The notes under the pieces were generated by a model. The model was not told where the DNA came from. It saw nothing but the letters and a program-made list of their open reading frames with translations, and did no database searches. A stretch of DNA of 55,299 nucleotides from Candidatus Natronoplasma sp. (lineage in GTDB: Archaea > Thermoplasmatota > Thermoplasmata > Halarchaeoplasmatales > Halarchaeoplasmataceae). The stretch lies in NCBI GenBank assembly GCA_048621055.1, contig JBMCXO010000001.1:1-55299 (forward strand). Reading direction: 5' to 3'. Below are positions 3,415 through 41,928 of the stretch, piece by piece. The position numbers were made by a program, and so were the translations under genes. The first letter of the stretch is position 1, and each line of letters starts with the position of its first letter.

Positions 3415-4866
3415 TCACCAATACCCGAGCAACCACCACCAACCTAATCCTATGGTGAGGAATATAGCCAAACCTATTATATTGAGAATCAAACCAGAAA
3501 CTAAAAAGTCCTTCTGATCTAGATGCCCAGTTGAGTAAACTAAAGCCGCGCTGGGTGTACCTACAATGAACATGAAGGCGAAAGCACTAGGAAGTGCTAC
3601 AAGGTACACAGGGAGTATATCAGAAAAGCCCATCTCCAGCATAGCCGATAAAGCTATCGGCAAGACTACACCTGTCGTCGCGGCATTGCTCATCACATTT
3701 GAAAGGAAAGCAGTCAATATTGCAAACATCGCCAGCAGAAGAAATGGGGACTTTCCGACCATACCGAGCAAGAAGATGGCTACGAATTGAAGCGTCCCCG
3801 ACTCGCTCAGGATGAACCCCAAAGATATAGCTCCACCGTAAAGGAATATAGTACCCCAGGGTAATCTCTGAGCTATGTCGTCCCAGCTTATAGTGCCTGA
3901 AAGAGCTATGACAACAGAGATAAAGACTGCTATGACTCCCATTCCTAACACCTGTCCTAGAACAGCCCAGGCGATGAAAGCGGAGATCAAAAAGCCTAGT
4001 GCTTTTGCTTCACCCATCGAAAATTTTCCCATCTCTTCAACCTGAGAACCCACTTCGTTCGATATCTTTTCTATATCCACCCCTCTAACATCGAAGATTT
4101 TCACAAGTACTATGTAAACAAAAAAAGTCATCAAAAGTACCATCGGTATAGCAGCTATGAACCATTCGACGAAAGAGATGGATTTACCAGTTTCGACGAA
4201 ATATATCTCAATCGCTAAAGGATTTCTAGCTCCACCCAATAGAGTACCCATACTACCAACGCTGGTGGAGAAGGAAAGACCTAAGAGACTAGCTTTGATA
4301 AAATCAGGATCGAGTTCACCTTCTTCATATACTGAGTAGACGCTGAGCAATACCGGTATGAATATAGCCGCGACGCCGTGAGCAGGCATCGTCATGGAAA
4401 GGAACGAACCTAGAAGAACGATCCCCAATACGAAACGCTTAGGATTTTCTCCAAACCTTTTCAGCACCTTCAATGCTATCCTTTTATGGAGACCGTATTT
4501 TTCTATCGTAAGACTCAATATGAATGCGCCGAGGAGAAAGAAAATCGTCGTAGAGGCAAAACCCGTGAACGCGTTAGCGGGTTCTATAATACCAAGCATG
4601 ACGGAAAAAGAGATTATCAAAAATGCGGTAAACATATAAGAAACTGGAGTCAAAAGCCAATAATAGATCGCCAAAAAGAGAAGCGCTATACCATAATACT
4701 GTTGAGCTGTTGCTGTATCAACGGCGATCCGATTGAACACTAAGATAAGTATAGCAAATATAAGCAGACCTATAACTCCCTGTACTTTATCGTTTCTCAA
4801 ATACCTCAATATATTGAATTTATATTCGATTATTTTCGATCTTAGCTCACCAGTAACTATTTTCAT
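3415..4866 (-). CDS. ion-transporter superfamily permease (DASS/SLC13- or ArsB/NhaD-like), paralog 2
   Basis: 483 aa. Motifs FLSMTMPAHGVAAIFIPV and NVMSNAATTGVVLPIA, with the same C-terminus (GLGWWWLLGYW) as paralog 1. Confidence 0.8.
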   Translation of the reverse strand: MKIVTGELRSKIIEYKFNILRYLRNDKVQGVIGLLIFAILILVFNRIAVDTATAQQYYGIALLFLAIYYWLLTPVSYMFTAFLIISFSVMLGIIEPANAFTGFASTTIFFLLGAFILSLTIEKYGLHKRIALKVLKRFGENPKRFVLGIVLLGSFLSMTMPAHGVAAIFIPVLLSVYSVYEEGELDPDFIKASLLGLSFSTSVGSMGTLLGGARNPLAIEIYFVETGKSISFVEWFIAAIPMVLLMTFFVYIVLVKIFDVRGVDIEKISNEVGSQVEEMGKFSMGEAKALGFLISAFIAWAVLGQVLGMGVIAVFISVVIALSGTISWDDIAQRLPWGTIFLYGGAISLGFILSESGTLQFVAIFLLGMVGKSPFLLLAMFAILTAFLSNVMSNAATTGVVLPIALSAMLEMGFSDILPVYLVALPSAFAFMFIVGTPSAALVYSTGHLDQKDFLVSGLILNIIGLAIFLTIGLGWWWLLGYW

Positions 4867-17403: not shown

Positions 17404-17967
17404 CTATAGCAATATCAATTCCAATCCGCGTAGAACGAAAAGAGGCACGATTATCATCAAAAAATCGTCATCTATCCTTATAGTTGGATATTCAGCTAAT
17501 ATAGCAGCCGCGGCTCCGATCATAGAGAAAGTTATTATTATATAAAGAGAAAAAACACCTAAAATACTGAACAACAACATCGCCAGCAGAGACCATGCTA
17601 TAAAAGGGACATAGGGGTAAAATTCAGGTTTATGGTGCTGTATCTCACCGATCAGTGGATCTATGAGGCCCATCCCTAGCAGACAAACGATGGCTAGATG
17701 CATAGGAAAAAACAGTAAGGTGATGGCAGCAGCTATGGAGGCCCAACCATATGATGCGAATTGTCTTTTTTCATAATCCCTCATGCCGTAGATACTGAAC
17801 CCAAAATACAGTCGAAAGCCTTCAAATACCAGTACTATAGCTAATATTATTATGAGAAACATGTCTCGTGGATAGCCAATTAAGGTATCGGGTACCAAAT
17901 AATAAACTAAAACTATCCACACCATTGAGTGGATTATCCTTCTGGTTAACCTCTCTTCTTCAGTCAT
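17404..17967 (-). CDS. membrane protein, possibly a polyprenol/dolichol kinase-like CTP-transferase family member
   Basis: 187 aa with about 5 TM segments. RRIIH, EGFRL, RDYEKR and GLIDPLIGE loosely fit the dolichol-kinase pattern. Overlaps the upstream ACD-alpha gene by 8 nt. Confidence 0.4.
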   Translation of the reverse strand: MTEEERLTRRIIHSMVWIVLVYYLVPDTLIGYPRDMFLIIILAIVLVFEGFRLYFGFSIYGMRDYEKRQFASYGWASIAAAITLLFFPMHLAIVCLLGMGLIDPLIGEIQHHKPEFYPYVPFIAWSLLAMLLFSILGVFSLYIIITFSMIGAAAAILAEYPTIRIDDDFLMIIVPLFVLRGLELILL

Positions 17968-19429
17968 CGATACATTCCCCTAGATGAGATAAAGTCCTTC
18001 CTCGATCCACCAACACGGCTAGACAATCTATAGCTCTCTTTGTGCTCGGATAAGCAGGTACACCCTCTTTGTAAAACTCTTCTCTCCATCTATCTCCAGT
18101 CTTGTCTCCAATGCAGGCGACAACGATTGGTTTGTCTCCCTGGTGATACCACTTCGAGATCGATTCGACCATTCCCTCTCCTACATATGGCGACTGAAAC
18201 AGCGCATATAGAAATATAGCATCGATCTTGTCCTCATCTTGGAGTATTTTCAGCACGTCATCCACCATCTCATCTGTAACATTAGCAGTAAGATCTATCG
18301 GGTTATCTCCGGACGCTATAGGAAGGATCACATCATCCAACCTCTCCTTTATATCGTCAGAAAAAGAAGGCATTTTAAGACCCAGTCCAGGATCAGAATC
18401 CTCTATGTAATCCGAAGCTATGACTCCAGTACCTCCAGCACTGCTTATGACGGCGATATTTTCTCCTTCGATAGGGTCATTCATACCCAAAACTTCAGAA
18501 AAATCTGTAAGCTCTCTTTCATCGTATGCGTTTATTATGCCAGCCTGTTTTGATACGCCTTTTACCACCCTGTCTGATGTAGAGGCTAGAGAACCCGTAT
18601 GAGATTGTGTAGCTTTCCGGCCGATATCACTTCTACCGCTTTTTAGAAGGACTATCGGTTTTTCAGGAGCCGTTCTCTTTGCGATCTCGTAAAGTTCCCT
18701 TCCATCAGATAGACTTTCGAGGTATAGTGCTATAACGTCGGTTTCTTCGTCTTCAGCGAAGTATTCCATTAATTCGACTTCATCTATATCCAATCGGTTT
18801 CCTATCCCCACGAAACCGGACAGACCAGTATGGTGTGCACAGAGAGTTTCCACGAACGGAGTAGCCATGAATCCGCTCTGAGATATGAAAGCTATACCAC
18901 CTTCTTCTGGCCGTTCGACGCGATCTTCTGGTAAGAAAAAGGTATCAAGATCTACTGGAGGTATCAGGACACCCATGGTATTAGGTCCCAACAAACGGGT
19001 CCGATTTCCTTTCAATATCTCTTTTATTTCTTCCTCCATCTTTTTCCCCTTCTCGCCAGTTTCACCAAAGCCGCCTGAAACGAGTATTATCGCTCCAACA
19101 CCGAATTTTACACAGTCTTCCACTGCATCAACCGCATATTTTGAAGGTATTGCTAATATCGCAAGGTCTACCTCGTCAGGAACATCATGGATAGTGGTGA
19201 AAAAACCTTCCTCCCCTTCTGCCTTGGGATTTATCGCATAAACATCTCTATGGGAGCTTTTCAAATTGTGGTATATTATGTTACCCATCTTTTCATCTTC
19301 ACTGAGAGAAACACCGAAAATAGCCACATTATCTGGATCGAGTAATTTATCTATGTTCTGCCCTCTTTTAGATCCATCCAAGCTCAAATATACCACCATG
19401 ATGACTGTAAATCCGATTTTACCCATCAA
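17960..19429 (-). CDS. ADP-forming acetyl-CoA synthetase, alpha-type subunit (CoA-binding plus CoA-ligase domains, no ATP-grasp)
   Basis: LLDPDNVAIFGVS, LLGPNTMGV, and phosphohistidine motif QSHTGSLAS. The N-terminal ~15 aa of the ORF are uncertain. Confidence 0.85.
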   Translation of the reverse strand: MMGKIGFTVIMVVYLSLDGSKRGQNIDKLLDPDNVAIFGVSLSEDEKMGNIIYHNLKSSHRDVYAINPKAEGEEGFFTTIHDVPDEVDLAILAIPSKYAVDAVEDCVKFGVGAIILVSGGFGETGEKGKKMEEEIKEILKGNRTRLLGPNTMGVLIPPVDLDTFFLPEDRVERPEEGGIAFISQSGFMATPFVETLCAHHTGLSGFVGIGNRLDIDEVELMEYFAEDEETDVIALYLESLSDGRELYEIAKRTAPEKPIVLLKSGRSDIGRKATQSHTGSLASTSDRVVKGVSKQAGIINAYDERELTDFSEVLGMNDPIEGENIAVISSAGGTGVIASDYIEDSDPGLGLKMPSFSDDIKERLDDVILPIASGDNPIDLTANVTDEMVDDVLKILQDEDKIDAIFLYALFQSPYVGEGMVESISKWYHQGDKPIVVACIGDKTGDRWREEFYKEGVPAYPSTKRAIDCLAVLVDRGRTLSHLGECIDD

Positions 19430-19643
19430 GTACCTATTTATGTAATTTTTGTCTTTTTCACATATTTTTATAACATTATTAATACACCATAATCTTTTCC
19501 TCTATTGACTATAAGTAATTACCACAGATGACTTAAAATATGGGGTGATTCCTTAATCACACTTTACCCAAAGAGTCTCGAATTCCGACAGTAGTGAGAG
19601 GTTTCCAAAATACTAATAAACCCCTTCTCTTTACTCCGATTTG

Positions 19644-21764
19644 ATGGCATCAAAAAAAGATGAACTCGATGGGCTTTTTGATCCAGATTCTATCGCAGTT
19701 ATCGGTGCCTCCAGAAAAGAAGGAAAGATAGGATACACACTTTTTTCAAACATAATAAAATCTGATTATAAGGGAGAGGTATACCCTATAAATCCAAAGG
19801 GTGGAGAGATTTTCGGAGAAAAGATATACGAATCCATCGAGGATGTGCCCGGGAGCGTAGATCTTGCGGTAGTCGTTGTGCCTGCCAAGATAGTAAAAGA
19901 TGCTATACATGAATGTGGAGAAAAAGGGGTAAAACATGCGATAGTCATCTCCTCGGGCTTTTCAGAAATAGGAAATGTGGAAGAGGAAGAGGAGATGGTT
20001 GAAGAGGCAAAAAAATATGGCATGAGAGTTTTAGGTCCTAATGTTTTTGGCATTTACTCTTCACGGTCAGACCTGAACGCAACTTTCGGTCCTTCAGAGA
20101 TAGAAAAGGGAAGCATCGCTTTACTGTCCCAGAGCGGAGCTTTAGGTATCGCTATGATAGGAAAGACCGCCCAGCAGTATTTAGGTCTCTCTGCTATAGT
20201 GAGCATCGGTAACAAGGCTGATATCGATGATATAGACCTTGTAGACTATTTCAGCGAAGATGAAGAAACAGATGTCATAATGATTTATATGGAGGGGCTG
20301 GAAAACGGAAGGGAGTTCATGGAAAAAGTCAGAGAACTCCCGGAAGATAAAACGGTAGTCGTGATCAAATCAGGCCGTTCGGATAAAGGTGCTACTGCAG
20401 TTGCATCTCATACTGGCTCACTTGCTGGAAGTGACCGTATATTTTCCTCCGCATTCGAACAATGTGGTGTTCACAGAGCGGAGGATTTGAGGGAAGCTTT
20501 CAATTGGTCTAGAGTCCTTTCAACGTCTCCACTCCCAAAAAAAGATAATACTGTCGTGGTCACAAACGGTGGCGGCATAGGAGTCTTAAGTGCCGATGCG
20601 GCGGAAAAATACGATGTGAAATTGCTGGATGACCAGACACATTTAAAAGAAACTTTTGAGGATGCTATACCTTCATTTGGTTCTACCAAAAATCCTGTAG
20701 ATATAACTGGTCAGGCTGGAAAAGAGGAATACGAGAGTTCTTTGAGGAAGGCTTTCAAAAGCGATATGACCGGTGCTGTTGTGGGGCTTTACTGCGAAAC
20801 AGGGACCGCCGATCCGTGGAAAGTAGCCGAGGCGATAAAAGAGGTATATGACGACCATGGGGCTGAAAAGGCTTCGGTGTACACCTTTACCGGTGGCAAG
20901 AAAGTCCAGGAATGTGTCCAATGGTTAAGAAAACATAAGATACCGGCTTTCACAGACACTTACGAATGTATATCCGCTTTGGGTGCACTTTTCAAGAAAA
21001 AACGCTATCTTGAGAGGGAAAAAGAAAGGCAGGAAGAGATAGAGTTGGATATACCTCTCGATAAGATTAGAAAAAGAGTGAGAAAGATAAGAAATAAGGG
21101 TAGATTAACGCTGTTAGAACAAGAAGCACGTGAGATATTGGATCTTGCAGATGTTCCAATGGTAGAGGGAGAAGTAGTGAATTCATTAGATAGAGCGGTA
21201 GAGGTTTCAGAAGATATAGGATACCCAGTAGTATTGAAAGTTGTTTCAGAAGATATAATACATAAATCCGATGCTGGCGGTATCGCTCTCGATCTGGAGA
21301 ATGAAGAGGAAGTTGTAGATGCCTATCAAGCGATATATTCGAATTGCCGCAAGAATTATCCCGATGCTCACATAAGCGGTATTTCCGTAGCAAAGATGCT
21401 CAAAGGTGGAGAAGAGACCATAGTAGGTGGTTCGAGAGACGGTTCTTTCGGACCTTTAATAATGTTCGGTTTAGGTGGCGTTTATGTAGAAGTTCTAGAA
21501 GACGTAGAGTTCCGTGTCGCTCCCATAACCAAAAAAGAGGCTAGAAGGATGATGGGGCAGATAGACTCTTTCCCAGTATTGGTCGGAGCAAGGGGGCAAC
21601 CGAGAAAAGATTTAAACGCATTGGCAGATGTTATATATAGGATATCCTATTTGATGAATGAAATAGAGGAGATCTCGGAGATGGACCTCAATCCTATCAA
21701 AGCATTCGATCAAGGAGAAGGATGTAAAGTTGTAGACGTGGCTATAAATCTCGAAAGTAGGTGA
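19644..21764 (+). CDS. acd: ADP-forming acetyl-CoA synthetase, fused alpha-beta
   Basis: About 706 aa. LFDPDSIAVIGAS, ASHTGSLAGS, and a C-terminal ATP-grasp (GYPVVLKVVSEDIIHKSDAGG). Confidence 0.92.
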   Translation: MASKKDELDGLFDPDSIAVIGASRKEGKIGYTLFSNIIKSDYKGEVYPINPKGGEIFGEKIYESIEDVPGSVDLAVVVVPAKIVKDAIHECGEKGVKHAIVISSGFSEIGNVEEEEEMVEEAKKYGMRVLGPNVFGIYSSRSDLNATFGPSEIEKGSIALLSQSGALGIAMIGKTAQQYLGLSAIVSIGNKADIDDIDLVDYFSEDEETDVIMIYMEGLENGREFMEKVRELPEDKTVVVIKSGRSDKGATAVASHTGSLAGSDRIFSSAFEQCGVHRAEDLREAFNWSRVLSTSPLPKKDNTVVVTNGGGIGVLSADAAEKYDVKLLDDQTHLKETFEDAIPSFGSTKNPVDITGQAGKEEYESSLRKAFKSDMTGAVVGLYCETGTADPWKVAEAIKEVYDDHGAEKASVYTFTGGKKVQECVQWLRKHKIPAFTDTYECISALGALFKKKRYLEREKERQEEIELDIPLDKIRKRVRKIRNKGRLTLLEQEAREILDLADVPMVEGEVVNSLDRAVEVSEDIGYPVVLKVVSEDIIHKSDAGGIALDLENEEEVVDAYQAIYSNCRKNYPDAHISGISVAKMLKGGEETIVGGSRDGSFGPLIMFGLGGVYVEVLEDVEFRVAPITKKEARRMMGQIDSFPVLVGARGQPRKDLNALADVIYRISYLMNEIEEISEMDLNPIKAFDQGEGCKVVDVAINLESR

Positions 21765-21770
21765 TATAAA

Positions 21771-22799
21771 ATGAAAAATCTCATAATATCCTCGACTGAA
21801 GAGGATGCTGGAAAAACGACTATCGGTCTAGGATTAGCACTTGGAGATGATAGACCTTTAAATTACTTTAAACCCTTCGGTGATAGGCCTATCTATAAAA
21901 AAAAGAGGCTCATAGACTATGATGCTAAACTGTTCAAGAACGTCCTTTCTCTTGATACAGAATATGAGAAATTTTGTATAGGCTTCGATCACTCCAAAAT
22001 CAAGTACGCTTTCGACGAAGATACGATTCGTGACAAGATCAAAGAAAGGACAGATGAACTCTCAGAGGGAAAAGAAGGTTTGATAATAGAAACTGGAAAA
22101 CACTGGGGATTCGGATCTTCGATCACTCTTGATCCGGTATCCCTCTCCAAGATGATCGAAACTGAAGTAATACTGGTGACTTCAGACAGCGGAACTGAGA
22201 TACTAGACAAACTAACGACCGCATATAACTACTTCGAAAAAAACGGTGTGGATCTGCGGGGCGTCGTGCTGAACAAGGTCGAATCTTTGGAGGAGGCTGA
22301 AGATTTTGTTGTGGACGATATAGAAGATTTAGGTTTGGATGTATTGGGGATAATACCCAAGATCAGCAGTCTTGACCTAACCAGGATGAGCTTCATAAAC
22401 GATATGCTTTTCGGTAAGGTCGTAGCGGGAGAGGAAGGCCTTAACAATATAGTAGAAAATGTATATGTAGGTGCTTTGAGCGCCGATGAATTAGTGCGTA
22501 TTCCCGCTTTTCAGGAAGATGGTAAGTTGATCGTCACTGGAGGAGATAGAACCGATGTCATCTTAGCTTCGTTAGAAGATGGAACATCAGGACTTGTTCT
22601 GACCAATGATATAATACCGCCCAGTAATATAATCTCAAAAGCTGATAGAGCAAACATACCCTTGGTCTCAGTACCTATCGATACTTATGAAGCCGCGAAA
22701 AGAATCGAGAGGATGGATACCATAACAACTATAGAAGACGATTACAAGATAGAGAACATCAAAGAAGAAGTAACACCTAGACTGGATATAAAAATCTGA
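21771..22799 (+). CDS. Pta N-terminal-like protein (P-loop DTBS-like domain plus DRTGG domain), with no PTA catalytic domain
   Basis: 342 aa with EEDAGKTTIGLGLA and LIVTGGDRTDVILASL. Confidence 0.75.
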   Translation: MKNLIISSTEEDAGKTTIGLGLALGDDRPLNYFKPFGDRPIYKKKRLIDYDAKLFKNVLSLDTEYEKFCIGFDHSKIKYAFDEDTIRDKIKERTDELSEGKEGLIIETGKHWGFGSSITLDPVSLSKMIETEVILVTSDSGTEILDKLTTAYNYFEKNGVDLRGVVLNKVESLEEAEDFVVDDIEDLGLDVLGIIPKISSLDLTRMSFINDMLFGKVVAGEEGLNNIVENVYVGALSADELVRIPAFQEDGKLIVTGGDRTDVILASLEDGTSGLVLTNDIIPPSNIISKADRANIPLVSVPIDTYEAAKRIERMDTITTIEDDYKIENIKEEVTPRLDIKI

Positions 22800-22859: not shown

Positions 22860-24698
22860 ATGGTATATGATGTAGATTATGTGGAAGCTGAAAAAGCTAT
22901 CAAAGAGATCGGTAGAGGTGAAAGAGTTTTTGTTGGATCGGGGGCCGCTGAACCTCAGTACCTCGTCAAAAATTTGACCGATCTAGCCAATCAGTTTTAC
23001 GATACAGAAATATTTCACATACAGACTTTGGGCGTCGCACCCTACACTGAGGATAAATTTGAAGACCGTTTCAGGCACAATGCTTTTTTCGTAGACGACA
23101 ACACGAGGGACGCTGTAGCCGAGGGGAGAGCCGATTATACTCCTATATTTATGAAAGATATCCCCAAACTGTTCAGGAGTAAGAGGGTTCCTTTGGATGC
23201 GGCTTTGGTTCAATTGTCTCCCCCAGACGAACACGGGTGGATGAGTCTTGGTATCGCTGTAGATATAATAAAATCAGCTGTGAAAAACTCAAAGATCGTC
23301 ATAGGACAAGTGAACCCCCATATGCCTAGAGTTCACGGAGATTCCTTCATACATGTAGATGATGTAGATTATTTGGTACATCATGAGGAAGAACTCTTGG
23401 AATTCGATCCTATATTTCCCAGCGAGAAAGCAGAAGAAATAGCTGATAATGTAAGCCCCTTGATCGAGGACGGAGCTACAATACAGGTCGGTTATGGAGA
23501 GATACCTAATGCTATTTTATCTCATCTTGAAGAAGAGGAAAATCTTGGTATTCATACGGAGATGTTATCAGAAGACCTTGCTGAGTTAATCAAAGACGGG
23601 ATCATAACCAATAAAGAAAAGAGCATACATCCAGGAAAGAGCATAGCTTCATTTTTGATGGGCACTAAAGATCTATATGATTTCGTAGATGACAATCCCT
23701 CCATAGAACTTCATCCCTCTGATTATACCAACGATCCTTTTAACATAGCAAAAAATCACAAGATGACCGCGATAAACACCGCCTTACAGGTAGACCTCAC
23801 GGGCCAGGTCTGTGCCGACTCGTTAGGTTACAGCTTCTACAGCGGTATCGGTGGTCACGCTGATTTTATGAGAGGAGCAGGATATGCGGAGGATGGAAAA
23901 TCGATCATCGCCCTTTCATCGACCGCTCAAGATGGAGAGGTTTCAAGGATCGTTCCATCTCTAGATGAAGGCGCTGGGGTAGTTACTACGAGAGGAGATG
24001 TAGAGTATGTAGTGACTGAATACGGTACTGCTTATCTGAAAGGGAAAAATATTCGAAACCGAGCCATGGAACTCATAAATATAGCCCATCCAAAGTTTAG
24101 AGAAGAACTTCTCAAAAAAGCGAAGGAACATAACCTTGTTTATAAAGATCAGATGCTTGTAGTTGGTGAAGGAGGGAGATACCCAGATGAATACAAAGAT
24201 TACGTTGAGATCGAGGGCAAAGAATTCGTGTTCCGGCCGATGAAACCTACTGACGATGAACTTCTAAAGGACTTATTCTACTCGCTTTCTGATGAAAGCC
24301 GATATAAACGTTTCATGAGCGCTCGAAAGGACATGCCTCACGAGAGAAGGCAGGAGTTCGTCCAGTTGAATTATAATAAGGAGATGGCTATCGTAGTAAT
24401 AGATACCGAAATCGATGGGCCTCACAGGATGGTAGGAGTCGGAGATTATCGGATCAAAGAAGGACAATATGTTGCTGAAGTCTCCTTCATGATAAGAGAC
24501 GAGTACCAAGGTCAGGGAATAGGAACTAGACTCCTTGAATATCTGACCATGATCGCTCAGGATCAGGGTCTTTACGGATTTACAGCCGAAGTACTCGCGG
24601 ACAATAAGAAGATGTTGAGAGTCTTCGAAAAGATGGGTTATGATATAGAAAAAAGAAGAGAATTCGGAGAGATAATCTTAAAGATGAGGTTCAAATGA
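22860..24698 (+). CDS. acetyl-CoA hydrolase/transferase-family domain fused to a Pat-type GNAT acetyltransferase domain
   Basis: 612 aa. CoA-transferase-like N-terminal ~440 aa (VFVGSGAAEPQ...). The C-terminal FRPMKPTDDELLKDLFYSLSDESRYKRF...QGQGIGTRLLEYL matches the GNAT domain of bacterial Pat. Confidence 0.8.
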   Translation: MVYDVDYVEAEKAIKEIGRGERVFVGSGAAEPQYLVKNLTDLANQFYDTEIFHIQTLGVAPYTEDKFEDRFRHNAFFVDDNTRDAVAEGRADYTPIFMKDIPKLFRSKRVPLDAALVQLSPPDEHGWMSLGIAVDIIKSAVKNSKIVIGQVNPHMPRVHGDSFIHVDDVDYLVHHEEELLEFDPIFPSEKAEEIADNVSPLIEDGATIQVGYGEIPNAILSHLEEEENLGIHTEMLSEDLAELIKDGIITNKEKSIHPGKSIASFLMGTKDLYDFVDDNPSIELHPSDYTNDPFNIAKNHKMTAINTALQVDLTGQVCADSLGYSFYSGIGGHADFMRGAGYAEDGKSIIALSSTAQDGEVSRIVPSLDEGAGVVTTRGDVEYVVTEYGTAYLKGKNIRNRAMELINIAHPKFREELLKKAKEHNLVYKDQMLVVGEGGRYPDEYKDYVEIEGKEFVFRPMKPTDDELLKDLFYSLSDESRYKRFMSARKDMPHERRQEFVQLNYNKEMAIVVIDTEIDGPHRMVGVGDYRIKEGQYVAEVSFMIRDEYQGQGIGTRLLEYLTMIAQDQGLYGFTAEVLADNKKMLRVFEKMGYDIEKRREFGEIILKMRFK

Positions 24699-24818
24699 GG
24701 TGAGAAGATAATAAGCGATGAGGAGTGTATAGAAGAAAAAATCGAAAAAGATTGGGAGATCGATTTTAACGGGATCAAAGAGATAATCGAAGAAGCAGGA
24801 GATGATGGAAGACATCAG

Positions 24819-25460
24819 TTGATCGAAAGCGAAATGCGTAAAGTTCTCCAAATCGCGGGCATCTCGATGGCTAAAGGTAAGATAGTTAGAAATCTAGAAG
24901 ACTGTTTAGATGCGGCAGAAAGTATCGGTTATCCCGTAGTACTCAAAGTGGTCTCGGAGGACATAGTCCACAAGATGGACGTCGGCGGTATTGCTGTAGG
25001 TCTTGAGACCAAAAAAGAAGTCGAAGATGCCTATCAGGCAATACATTCAAGGGTCAAAAATAGAAAACCCGATGCGAACATAAGAGGTATTTCCGTTGCG
25101 GAGATGGTCGAAGGCGGTGTTGAAGTCGTGATAGGTGGGATGATGGATCCCACTTTCGGTCCAGTAGTGATGTTCGGGTTTGGAGGGATCTACGTGGAAA
25201 TATTCGAAGACGTAGAATTCAGAGTCGCTCCCATATCCATCGAAGAAGCACATCGGATGATGGCAGAGATAAATTCTTTTCCCCTGCTGACCGGCGCGCG
25301 AGGGCAAGGTTGTAAAGACTTGAATGCCTTGGCGGAAATGACCTCTCGAGTCGGGGATCTGATATACCACGTCGATGAAATAAACGATATAGACTTGAAT
25401 CCGGTAGCGTCCCTGGCTGAAGGTGCTAAAGCTTTGGACGTTGCGATCAGTCTAGGGTGA
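24819..25460 (+). CDS. ACD beta-type ATP-grasp domain protein; coding sequence probably begins upstream of the TTG
   Basis: GYPVVLKVVSEDIVHKMDVGGIAVGL is collinear with the C-terminal part of ORF 19644-21764. Homology continues through 24699-24818, which is in frame with the upstream gene and follows directly after its TGA. Confidence 0.8.
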   Translation: MIESEMRKVLQIAGISMAKGKIVRNLEDCLDAAESIGYPVVLKVVSEDIVHKMDVGGIAVGLETKKEVEDAYQAIHSRVKNRKPDANIRGISVAEMVEGGVEVVIGGMMDPTFGPVVMFGFGGIYVEIFEDVEFRVAPISIEEAHRMMAEINSFPLLTGARGQGCKDLNALAEMTSRVGDLIYHVDEINDIDLNPVASLAEGAKALDVAISLG

Positions 25461-39744: not shown

Positions 39745-40472
39745 TGATCGAGATAAAAGACCTCAGGAAGTCCTACGGGACTTTTGAAGCTCTAAAAGGG
39801 GTAGATTTCTTTTTGGAAGAAGGGGACATATACGCTCTTTTGGGCTCGAACGGCGCGGGTAAAACTACTCTGATAAAGATACTTACAGGTCTATTACAAC
39901 CATCTTCCGGTACTGCGAGGATCGACGGTCAATCTGCTAGGCATAACAAGAAGATCAGAGGTCGGTTTGGATACATGCCCGAACACCCAGACCTTTATGA
40001 AAAATTAACAGGTGAAGAATTCCTACATATGATGGGGTCACTAAAGGGTGTTGAGGAAGACATATTATCCGAGAAAATCGAAAGTCTATCTCTTGATCTA
40101 GAGATAAACGATCATCTACATAAAGAGATGGGGGGTTATTCTAAAGGTATGAAACAGAAGATCCTTTTCATGAACGCCGTCATAAACGACCCTCCTAATC
40201 TTATATTGGATGAACCAACGAACTCTTTAGATCCAAGATTTTCCCAAGATATCAAATCCAGGATAAAGGAATTGGCTTCGCGAGGGAAATGTATTCTGAT
40301 GAGTACTCACATCACTCCAGTTGCTGAAGACGTCGCAGATAAAGTAGGCATAATAGAGAAAGGACGTCTTGTAGCGGAAGGAACTGTGAACCAACTGAAA
40401 AGAGAAACTGGTTCGGATAACCTAGAACAGGTGTTCATAGAGGTGGTTAATCACGCCCAAAAAGATCCTTGA
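39744..40472 (+). CDS. ABC transporter ATP-binding protein (ABC-2 type)
   Basis: Walker A GSNGAGKTT, signature YSKGMKQK, Walker B LILDEPT. The ATG overlaps the upstream TGA. Confidence 0.9.
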   Translation: MIEIKDLRKSYGTFEALKGVDFFLEEGDIYALLGSNGAGKTTLIKILTGLLQPSSGTARIDGQSARHNKKIRGRFGYMPEHPDLYEKLTGEEFLHMMGSLKGVEEDILSEKIESLSLDLEINDHLHKEMGGYSKGMKQKILFMNAVINDPPNLILDEPTNSLDPRFSQDIKSRIKELASRGKCILMSTHITPVAEDVADKVGIIEKGRLVAEGTVNQLKRETGSDNLEQVFIEVVNHAQKDP

Positions 40473-40539
40473 ACTATTTTCTTCGGATATACTAAGATCT
40501 TACAGAGGATTTAAACGAAAGGTAAAAGAACATCCCGCG

Positions 40540-41928
40540 ATGATCTTATGGTTTATCCTTCTTATGTTCGGAGGTTTTTGGCTTATACTCTCGATGATAG
40601 AATTTCTAGCCGGTCTGGACGAACTTCTACTCGATCCCTCTCAAGGCAACGTACTCTTCAGTATTTTTTTCTTTTTTGTAGCAAAGTCCTCTGCAGAAAC
40701 GATCGAAGGAGTTTTGAAGGATAGGTCGCAGAAACATTATTTTTCCTCCCCCTTGAATCCAAGTTCTATTTTTTATTCCAAACTACTCAGAGTTTGGTTT
40801 TACAATCTTTTACTCTTCGGAGTAGCCATGAGCGTGACTTCATTGGTTGTCGGAATATGGAATATAGAACTACCTATCGATCGTAGATTTCTCATCCTAC
40901 TTTATACACTGATGGTTTTAGCACCTCTAGTCGGATTCAACATCTCTGTCACATCGCACGTCAAGAATAGATGGCTCAAGAAGATCAATTTGGTGATAGC
41001 TGGACAGATGATCACTCTTGCAGCTATAATTCTACACTCTGGACTCTCCCCTTTTTACCAGATCGGATATGCTATCTTGATGTTAGTAAGTTCTCTGATG
41101 ATAGCGGTTTTTTTGAACGCACCTTTATATGAAGAAGTATGGACCAATAGTAGTCAAAATACAGAAAGTTCAACACTTCACCATAAAGGCCTAGAACTGC
41201 CAAATTTTATCTCCGAACCCACTAGGTTGATAGCAGAGGTCGAATTCAAAAGAAGGTGGAGAAGAAGACAGGTTCTAGCTTCTATAGCGGTGGTCACTAT
41301 GATGGGGATTGGACTGATATTCATCTATTCAAGCCTTGGTCCTCGTCCTGATCTCGGTCTCGGTCTCGGGAAGTATTTCTATCCGTCCCTTATCGCGATG
41401 ACTGCTTTTTTGGCAGCGGTAATACATACCTTGATCCCGTCGCTTAATCTGTTCAGCAGAGACGGTGTCAGATTGTGGTGTATACGTACGCTTCCCAGCG
41501 AGATGAAAAAGATAGCGTCAGGAAAGGCATTAGCGATCATTTTAACGTCTCCGATCATGATCGTGATGATCGCTCTACCTCTACCGTTGATACTCGATTA
41601 TCCTCTCTCGTTCGTGGTCTTTTCTGCGTTTTCTTCATCCATATTCATATTCGTAATGAGCGGGATCGGCCTTTGGGCTGCAGCAAAATTTCCGAACTTC
41701 AACGAGAGTACAAAAGGGTCTCCAGACATCATAACGATGTATTCTATGATAATGTTAGCTATGATATTGTCTGTGATGTTTTTAAGTATCCCTTTCACTT
41801 TGATCGAGATGGACCGGATCCTTGCTATTTTGAGTGTGATACTTGCCGCAGACCTATCTGCTCTATTCATGATATCGATGTTCAAAAGAAGCTCGACTAT
41901 ATTAGAAAATATGGAATTGGACTTCTAG
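40540..41928 (+). CDS. polytopic membrane protein, putative permease partner of the ABC ATPase
   Basis: 462 aa with about 10-12 TM segments, directly downstream of the ATPase. No family motif recognised. Confidence 0.6.
   Translation: MILWFILLMFGGFWLILSMIEFLAGLDELLLDPSQGNVLFSIFFFFVAKSSAETIEGVLKDRSQKHYFSSPLNPSSIFYSKLLRVWFYNLLLFGVAMSVTSLVVGIWNIELPIDRRFLILLYTLMVLAPLVGFNISVTSHVKNRWLKKINLVIAGQMITLAAIILHSGLSPFYQIGYAILMLVSSLMIAVFLNAPLYEEVWTNSSQNTESSTLHHKGLELPNFISEPTRLIAEVEFKRRWRRRQVLASIAVVTMMGIGLIFIYSSLGPRPDLGLGLGKYFYPSLIAMTAFLAAVIHTLIPSLNLFSRDGVRLWCIRTLPSEMKKIASGKALAIILTSPIMIVMIALPLPLILDYPLSFVVFSAFSSSIFIFVMSGIGLWAAAKFPNFNESTKGSPDIITMYSMIMLAMILSVMFLSIPFTLIEMDRILAILSVILAADLSALFMISMFKRSSTILENMELDF

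Follow-up and report, generated by a model that had tools for sequence, protein, structure and literature searches.

The stretch analyzed here is a window of 55,299 nucleotides, contig 1 of a genome assigned to Candidatus Natronoplasma sp., in which two open reading frames (ORFs) of the same frame are separated by a single in-frame TGA: the first encodes a CoA-transferase fused to a GNAT domain, and the second an ATP-grasp protein resembling the beta subunit of ACD enzymes. Such an arrangement has the outward appearance of a recoding site. In our analysis, the two ORFs are separate genes, probably on one transcript, and the ATP-grasp gene most likely starts at the near-cognate codon ATA 24708 behind a Shine-Dalgarno (SD) site. 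Read in this way, the TGA resolves into an ordinary gene boundary and, therefore, no new decoding rule is required. Translation of the CoA-transferase-GNAT gene ends at the TGA (24696-24698) and the ATP-grasp gene, encoding an ACD beta-subunit-like protein of 250 aa, would be initiated 9 nt downstream at ATA 24708, or possibly at the ATA that follows it, with the initiator Met-tRNA reading ATA as methionine. The ribosome would be positioned by the 7-nt SD GAGGTGA, which overlaps the stop codon, and may arrive fresh or, given the distance of 9 nt, may have just terminated on the upstream gene (translational coupling). The 40 codons without a start codon that follow the TGA would consequently be composed of three spacer codons and 37 genuine N-terminal codons.

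The source genome (G000), from an uncultured lineage, is a metagenome-assembled genome (MAG) of 1.23 Mb in 89 contigs, 74% complete and with a G+C content of 42%. Its relatives are MAGs of Thermoplasmata from soda-lake and Great Salt Lake sediments, some of them labelled Candidatus Natronoplasma or Saliniplasma. The 3' end of the 16S rRNA, found on contig G000:C43, reads ...GAUGGAUCACCUCCU, from which AGGAGGUGAUCC is deduced as the ideal SD, and the GAGGTGA of the junction pairs with the 3' end ...GAUCACCUCCU of this rRNA through 7 complementary nucleotides. TGA is the commonest stop codon in the genome, where it ends 357 of the 620 long frames; for this reason, and for the TAA that relatives carry at this site, an alternative genetic code with TGA as a sense codon was rejected. 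A scan for bacterial promoters and terminators was uninformative, the host being an archaeon.

The junction in the genome and in its relatives

The upstream ORF contains the N- and C-terminal AcetylCoA_hydro domains and a GNAT domain (Pfam PF02550, PF13336 and PF00583), with residues 452-596 matching the Pat-type GNAT of NCBIfam, and in all of its orthologues (612-650 aa) the protein ends past the GNAT domain. The ORF downstream encodes an ATP-grasp_5 protein (PF13549, E = 3.9e-71), in which the Pfam match starts 7 codons before TTG 24819 and the NCBIfam profile of ADP-forming CoA ligases aligns from residue 18 after the stop. A first-pass annotation of the window had reported the coordinates of the two ORFs, the in-frame TGA, the 40 start-less codons and the TTG, as well as the domain content on both sides, and the sequence, Pfam and NCBIfam agree with it in all of these points. 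Read in the frame of the upstream ORF, the 40 codons (24699-24818) translate to GEKIISDEECIEEKIEKDWEIDFNGIKEIIEEAGDDGRHQ and are free of stops and of ATG, GTG and TTG. The same annotation had aligned them with the sequence preceding the ATP-grasp domain of a fused ACD encoded nearby, and this also stands: residues 454-704 of the fused ACD (ORF 19641-21764) match residues 2-252 after the stop with 50% identity over 253 aa (BLASTP). Start-less runs of 40 codons are in themselves nothing unusual and occur in 63 of 1046 long open frames of the genome; it is conservation and homology that give this run its meaning. The junction at 24695-24703 reads ATGAGGTGA; here the TGA shares two letters with an ATG (ATGA), and a two-codon ORF (Met-Arg-stop) that begins at this ATG lies within the SD site. 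This ATG at 24695 is not conserved, and relatives with a TAA stop carry ATA in its place.

To compare the junction, the read-through translation served as query in a six-frame search through 40 related genomes. The CoA-transferase-GNAT gene was found in about 27 of them and always stops after ...MRF(K/R), with either TGA or TAA; over more than 40 related loci of Thermoplasmata in all, the GNAT domain is without exception followed by a stop; the stop codon differs even between sequences whose GNAT ends are 97-98% identical (TGA in L042, TAA in L041). At the 18 loci with a neighboring ATP-grasp gene, the frame of the latter relative to that of GNAT is 0 in 7, +1 in 8 and +2 in 3. In most relatives the stop is followed by a GAGGT-type SD and by an ATG 10-16 nt past the stop, and the products measure 250-253 aa. 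This organization, found outside the clade described below in L009, L010, L012, L013, L014, L018-L020, L031 and L032, consists of a short spacer followed by a canonical ATG, an arrangement that the first-pass annotation had named as speaking against readthrough.

The ATG of the junction is absent from 13 distinct sequences, belonging to at least six species including that of the window (G000, G015, G008, G006, G001, G005 and soda-lake metagenome contigs). These sequences, together with the L011-type ones that are among them, cluster in a single group of the ATP-grasp tree (support 86/85), which is consistent with a single change retained through speciation. In all of the 12 distinct clade sequences whose junction was compared, an ATA or ATC stands 7 nt after the SD anchor, the SD itself being GAGGTGA, AGGTGAT or, in one case, GAGGGGAT; in the window, the distance from the GGAGG-equivalent of this SD to ATA 24708 is 7 nt. 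This ATA aligns without gaps to the ATG of L013/P0124 (I-ISDEEC...W versus M-DTEAEC...W), and the two codons are equally distant from a conserved Cys (6 codons) and from a conserved Trp. Two indels are present in the clade and both fall between the SD site and the ATH codon (ATH being ATA, ATC or ATT). In L008, a deletion of 3 nt in the spacer leaves the next ATA at a spacing of 7, and in the L011-type sequences an insertion of 1 nt in the spacer moves the ATC and the whole ATP-grasp gene into frame +1. The in-frame relation of the ATP-grasp gene to the upstream gene is, thus, incidental and owed to a spacer that by chance measures 9 nt.

The onset of protein-level constraint, as seen in nine clade sequences, coincides with the ATH codon. 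The three triplets between the stop and this codon have a pN/pS (nonsynonymous to synonymous polymorphism) of 1.30, with no constraint on the protein and with the changes located where SD pairing tolerates them, while the values downstream are 0.25 for codons 5-29, 0.37 for codons 30-40 and 0.15 for codons 41-60. By homology, the 40 codons correspond to the N-terminus of ACD beta subunits. When four sequences were compared over the 40 codons in frame 0, substitutions at codon positions 1, 2 and 3 numbered 38, 24 and 80, a pattern absent in the other frames, and the ratio of nonsynonymous to synonymous substitution rates (dN/dS) was 0.13-0.41 in frame 0 versus 0.49-2.1 in the other two. As judged by these comparisons, purifying selection acts on the 40 codons in frame 0.

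The length of the protein and its homology to solved structures point in the same direction. A start at ATA 24708 gives 250 aa, to be compared with the 250-253 aa of orthologues that have a canonical start, and 4xyl_B, a solved ACD beta subunit, aligns with its residues 5-228 to residues 25-248 of this protein (E = 3.3e-54). With ATA 24708 as residue 1, the homology to 4xyl_B and 1wr2_A begins at residue 25, 13 codons before the TTG, which would be residue 38, and the solved chains reach 4-6 residues further upstream; a start at the TTG would delete about 17 residues found in both of these minimal solved subunits. Gene finders have treated the N-terminus in different ways. A gene call in the protein collection (P0122), 100% identical, has 224 aa and the N-terminus MEEAGDDGRHQ, in which ATC 24786 is read as Met; no SD stands at a distance that could serve this codon, and purifying selection acts on the 25 codons before it. 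Other gene callers give 208 aa from ATG 24834. An annotation pipeline had, therefore, already chosen non-canonical starts for this gene, although the codon picked seems to be the wrong one. A related Candidatus Natronoplasma record, P0135, likewise starts at an internal ATA.

Alternative explanations and points against the proposed ATA start

Readthrough of the TGA, either programmed or leaky, would produce a CoA-transferase-GNAT-ATP-grasp fusion of about 866 aa, alone or beside a separate ATP-grasp subunit, and was among the explanations proposed in the first-pass annotation. It is suggested by the two ORFs being in frame in the window and in 11 distinct related sequences, with the sequence after the stop open, and by the bacterial Pat enzymes, which combine an ACD-like ATP-grasp and a GNAT domain in one chain (matches to PDB 9isq and 9it0). 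However, we consider it very unlikely and reject it, because the stop changes between TGA and TAA among near-identical sequences (L042 versus L041), the ATP-grasp frame takes all three values outside the clade and +1 in the L011-type sequences inside it, the three codons after the stop, which constitute the SD site, have no protein-level constraint, and no structured element is present at the junction, where neither a selenocysteine insertion sequence (SECIS) or other Rfam match (E <= 1) nor a stable RNA fold (z = +0.47) was found. Furthermore, a junction search of a collection of 5.8 billion proteins gave no fused CoA-transferase-GNAT-ATP-grasp among the 120 matches listed, out of 408 significant ones, and the six-frame search gave no fused orthologue among the 40 related genomes. 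A shorter protein as the sole product, with the upstream codons untranslated, appears less improbable but is still unlikely. It could start at TTG 24819 (213 aa), at ATG 24834 (208 aa, the prediction of most gene callers) or at ATC 24786 (224 aa): TTG and ATG are canonical starts, an AGGAG is present upstream of the TTG, and gene callers give 208, 213 or 224 aa for the members of the clade. Nevertheless, codons 5-29 after the stop are constrained and their changes are mainly in the third position, and the TTG is not conserved, being replaced by another codon in L043, L008/L036 and L048. The AGGAG (24797-24801) does lie 17 nt before the TTG, as had been pointed out in favor of the short form, but this spacing is too long; the ATC is not preceded by an SD site, and both the reach of 4xyl_B and 1wr2_A to about 17 residues upstream of the TTG-equivalent and the 250-253 aa of the ATG-start orthologues speak for the longer N-terminus.

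That the junction is a product of damage or artefact, namely a recent nonsense mutation that split a fusion gene, the loss of a start codon leaving the ATP-grasp gene a pseudogene, or an error of sequencing or assembly, might be suspected in a MAG as incomplete and fragmented as this one (74%, 89 contigs). This is hardly credible when at least 13 distinct sequences, drawn from assemblies made independently and from at least six species-level genomes, share this layout, a stop is present in every locus examined, purifying selection extends across the whole ATP-grasp ORF, and a fused ancestor is found neither among the relatives nor among the listed protein matches; the nonsense mutation and the sequencing error that the first-pass annotation had considered are both contradicted by these observations. 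Initiation at an out-of-frame canonical codon followed by a ribosomal frameshift has a probability close to negligible. The candidates would be GTG 24700, in frame +1 and within the SD site, and ATG 24695, in frame +2: a GTG is present at stop+4 in most members of the clade, and the window has the ATGA overlap. However, the GTG, as part of the SD site, lacks a separate SD, L042 reads GGGGAT and is without a GTG, and a shift of -1 or +2 would be needed in a place that has no slippery heptamer and where the GTG frame stops after 3-4 codons; as for the ATG, relatives with a TAA stop have ATA at the overlap. With these alternatives set aside, the start at an ATA or ATC that possibly follows termination and reinitiation, also on the original list, is the option favored by the comparative evidence.

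Several points weigh against initiation at ATA 24708, which we infer from spacing, alignment and conservation. An ordinary conserved Ile would also give an invariant ATH codon, and ATA 24708 and ATA 24711 are indistinguishable by sequence alone, so either could be the codon used. The genomes compared are related MAGs and, hence, non-independent samples; the pN/pS of the spacer is that of three codons; and the L011-type sequences also carry an in-frame GTG within the SD site. From the side of mechanism, a review of archaeal initiation lists AUG, GUG and UUG only as start codons (PMC7531240), and in Escherichia coli initiation at AUA, AUC, AUU and CUG, where Met is the residue inserted, reaches about 1-2% of that at AUG (bioRxiv 10.1101/063800). 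In Archaea, the factor aIF1 destabilizes non-AUG initiation complexes (PMC6237735), and the gene for aIF1 (SUI1) is present in G000 as well as in 16 of the 17 genomes from the genus. The initiator tRNA also looks canonical, as an A1-type tRNA(CAT) with the usual three G-C pairs in the anticodon stem. Both the loss of aIF1 and an aberrant initiator tRNA were considered as causes of a relaxed start selection and rejected on these grounds; with aIF1 present and a canonical-looking initiator tRNA, no obvious loss accounts for relaxed starts.

Candidate near-cognate starts in the rest of the genome

The whole genome was scanned for SD matches of at least 6 nt placed before long open frames without a canonical start, the start-less zone extending from the upstream stop through 10 codons past the candidate codon. 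In nine of the 16 strong-SD loci left unexplained, an ATA, ATC, ATT or CTG follows the SD at a distance of 6-9 nt, and near-cognates make up 10 of the 23 codons at these sites against a background of 10.2% (binomial p = 4e-5); with two control motifs, a near-cognate codon was found at 1 of 7 and 1 of 17 loci. The enrichment appears solely among SD sites that are not explained by a canonical start. Taken genome-wide, the ATA and ATC codons that fall among the first 60 of an open frame were not preceded by an SD signal, and only ATG stood out. Two of the scan's candidates turned out to be false positives, ribosomal protein L1, which has its real GTG start downstream, and ribulose-phosphate epimerase, which has a real ATG. 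The flanks of the locus in the relatives (363 kb) contained no independent further examples beyond the genes already studied.

Near-cognate starts appear to recur, on the evidence of domains, SD sites and relatives, in four other genes (Table 1), encoding a HAD hydrolase, a B12-binding protein, an EcfT/CbiQ protein and a Cas4 protein, in all of which the near-cognate codon directly precedes the Pfam domain, and the first canonical start is reached only well past the beginning of this domain. The ATT of the HAD hydrolase corresponds to an ATG in G015, both behind GGTGATCA, and the canonical start would cost the DMDGT motif its nucleophile Asp. Similarly, the ATC of the B12-binding protein corresponds to an ATG in G001, both behind AGGAGG. 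The CTG of EcfT is present in G000 and in G015, and its place is taken by TTG in G003 and by ATG in G011. The ATC of Cas4 is common to three species. In the same gene (G000:C75, about 4019-4025), an ATG precedes the ATC by 4 nt, one base out of frame (gtgATGtATCgag), and this sequence is identical in G001 and G008. To judge from the spacing, the ATC fits the SD better (8 nt) than the ATG does (4 nt); a +1 slip directly after a start at the ATG may also be considered.

On this basis, at least five genes in a partial genome of 1.2 Mb and one start kept across at least six species, it can be tentatively proposed, as a possibility short of a probable one, that AUA, AUC, AUU and CUG starts behind a strong SD are a regular and selected part of gene expression in this soda-lake genus. 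Under this proposal, the weak ATA start would make synthesis of the ATP-grasp protein depend on ribosomes that terminate 9 nt upstream, and the amount of beta subunit would in this way be tied to that of the CoA-transferase-GNAT protein. If true, it would mean natural use of near-cognate starts and start-relaxed reinitiation in Archaea, although aIF1 is intact and the initiator tRNA canonical. The several conserved ATH/CTG starts that this lineage has behind strong SD sites are also a test set for the stringency of start-codon selection in Archaea, and the same set of sequences could serve to test whether weak starts set subunit ratios. The consequences for annotation are more immediate, since gene finders shorten the ATP-grasp protein to 208, 213 or 224 aa and at least four more genes of the genome (HAD hydrolase, Cas4, EcfT and the B12-binding protein) are mis-started, with truncations that in the HAD hydrolase and Cas4 remove catalytic or structural N-terminal residues.

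Other loci with a strong SD of this kind were observed. In the window itself, a membrane protein gene (40441-41928) adjoins an upstream ABC-ATPase-like gene and has 30 codons without a canonical start; its candidate start, ATC 40450, and its N-terminal sequence are common to G008, G015, G005 and G006, the codon aligned to this ATC is ACC in G001, and distant relatives have an ATG one codon later. Elsewhere, an unexplained strong SD, AGGAGGTG, is followed by ATA at G000:C9 3810 (+), in front of a 196-aa membrane protein, and another, GGAGGTG, is followed by ATT at G000:C8 26909 (+), in front of a 306-aa protein.

Table 1. Features of the window and genes with a candidate near-cognate start on other contigs of the same genome (positions refer to the window unless a contig is named)
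Feature	Position	Strand	Basis
Acetyl-CoA hydrolase/transferase fused to Pat-like GNAT, 612 aa, TGA-terminated	22860-24698	+	Pfam/NCBIfam
TGA stop codon of the CoA-transferase-GNAT gene	24696-24698	+	Stop at the aligned site in every orthologous locus examined
SD site GAGGTGA, overlapping the stop codon	24697-24703	+	7-nt complement of the 16S rRNA 3' end
ATA, proposed (near-cognate) initiation codon	24708-24710	+	SD spacing and alignment to orthologue ATG
Adjacent ATA, possible alternative start	24711-24713	+	
ATP-grasp (ACD beta-subunit-like) gene, 250 aa plus stop	24708-25460	+	Pfam, PDB alignment, pN/pS
ATC, probably internal Ile codon; start in the protein-collection gene call	24786-24788	+	
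TTG, first canonical-type start codon; most likely internal Leu	24819-24821	+	
Alpha-only ACD gene (CoA_binding_2, Succ_CoA_lig, Ligase_CoA_2), without ATP-grasp	17960-19429	-	Pfam
Fused alpha-beta ACD	19641-21764	+	Pfam, NCBIfam; BLASTP paralogue of the ATP-grasp gene
Pta-N/DRTGG protein gene	21771-22799		
Membrane protein gene, 492 aa, candidate start ATC 40450	40441-41928	+	ATC 6 nt after GAGGTGG
HAD hydrolase, ATT start	G000:C22 6230-6862	-	Pfam domain, SD and relatives
B12-binding protein, ATC start	G000:C47 9294-9923	-	Pfam domain, SD and relatives
EcfT/CbiQ, CTG start	G000:C5 26443-27195	+	Pfam domain, SD and relatives
Cas4, ATC start	G000:C75 4023-4538	+	Pfam domain, SD and relatives

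Comparison with known systems and possible partners

The closest precedents for the proposed start are the AUU codons of infC (IF3) and pcnB in E. coli, the only confirmed natural near-cognate starts in this organism (bioRxiv 10.1101/063800). There, as in the ATP-grasp gene, a one-base variant of AUG starts an intact and conserved gene at a normal SD spacing and is missed by gene finders. Unlike infC and pcnB, the archaeal gene would be handled by aIF1, aIF1A and aIF2 instead of IF3, its codon is AUA or AUC, its start lies 9 nt past an upstream stop and it is known from sequence, with nothing pointing to autoregulation. The replacement of AUG by AUU or CUG in evolution is extremely rare: a curated comparison found, among 61,358 ancestral AUG starts, 1 switch to AUU and 2 to CUG (PMC5622118). 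In SD-led initiation in Archaea, SD pairing is thought to come first and the initiator tRNA then to sample triplets close to the P site, under proofreading by aIF1 (PMC6237735), and ribosome profiling of Haloferax volcanii gave about 30% near-cognate codons among putative alternative initiation sites, which the authors set aside (PMC7261190).

Translational coupling has been described in H. volcanii and E. coli for co-directional genes that lie very close together and of which the upstream one ends with an SD site; the two products often belong to the same complex (PMC6728339, PMC10666635). The junction studied here is alike in its layout, but in typical pairs the two genes share 4 or 1 nt and the start is ATG or GTG, while here the gap is 9 nt, the start is near-cognate and the coupling is putative. 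The distance would be compatible with termination-reinitiation, because in H. volcanii this process keeps an efficiency of 40-60% at 13-14 nt and disappears when the genes are 22-23 nt apart (PMC10666635). The likeness to stop codon recoding, as with UGA for selenocysteine, UAG for pyrrolysine or a leaky UGA, is superficial and consists of an in-frame stop followed by open, coding-like sequence; unlike in those cases, neither the identity of the stop nor the frame is conserved, a SECIS or other element is missing and the codons just past the stop are without constraint.

As for the protein, it resembles the ACD beta subunit of Candidatus Korarchaeum cryptofilum (4xyl chain B) and PH1789 (1wr2), stand-alone ATP-grasp_5 proteins of 230-250 aa to which it aligns over their full length. 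It differs from them in about 20 extra N-terminal residues, with a conserved Cys and DW-ID motifs, and in the position of its gene directly behind the CoA-transferase-GNAT gene and not behind an alpha subunit. An alpha-only ACD gene is encoded 5 kb away, on the opposite strand and not adjacent, and the ATP-grasp beta subunit may be the partner of this protein or else of its immediate neighbor, the CoA-transferase-GNAT protein, in a split Pat-like arrangement.

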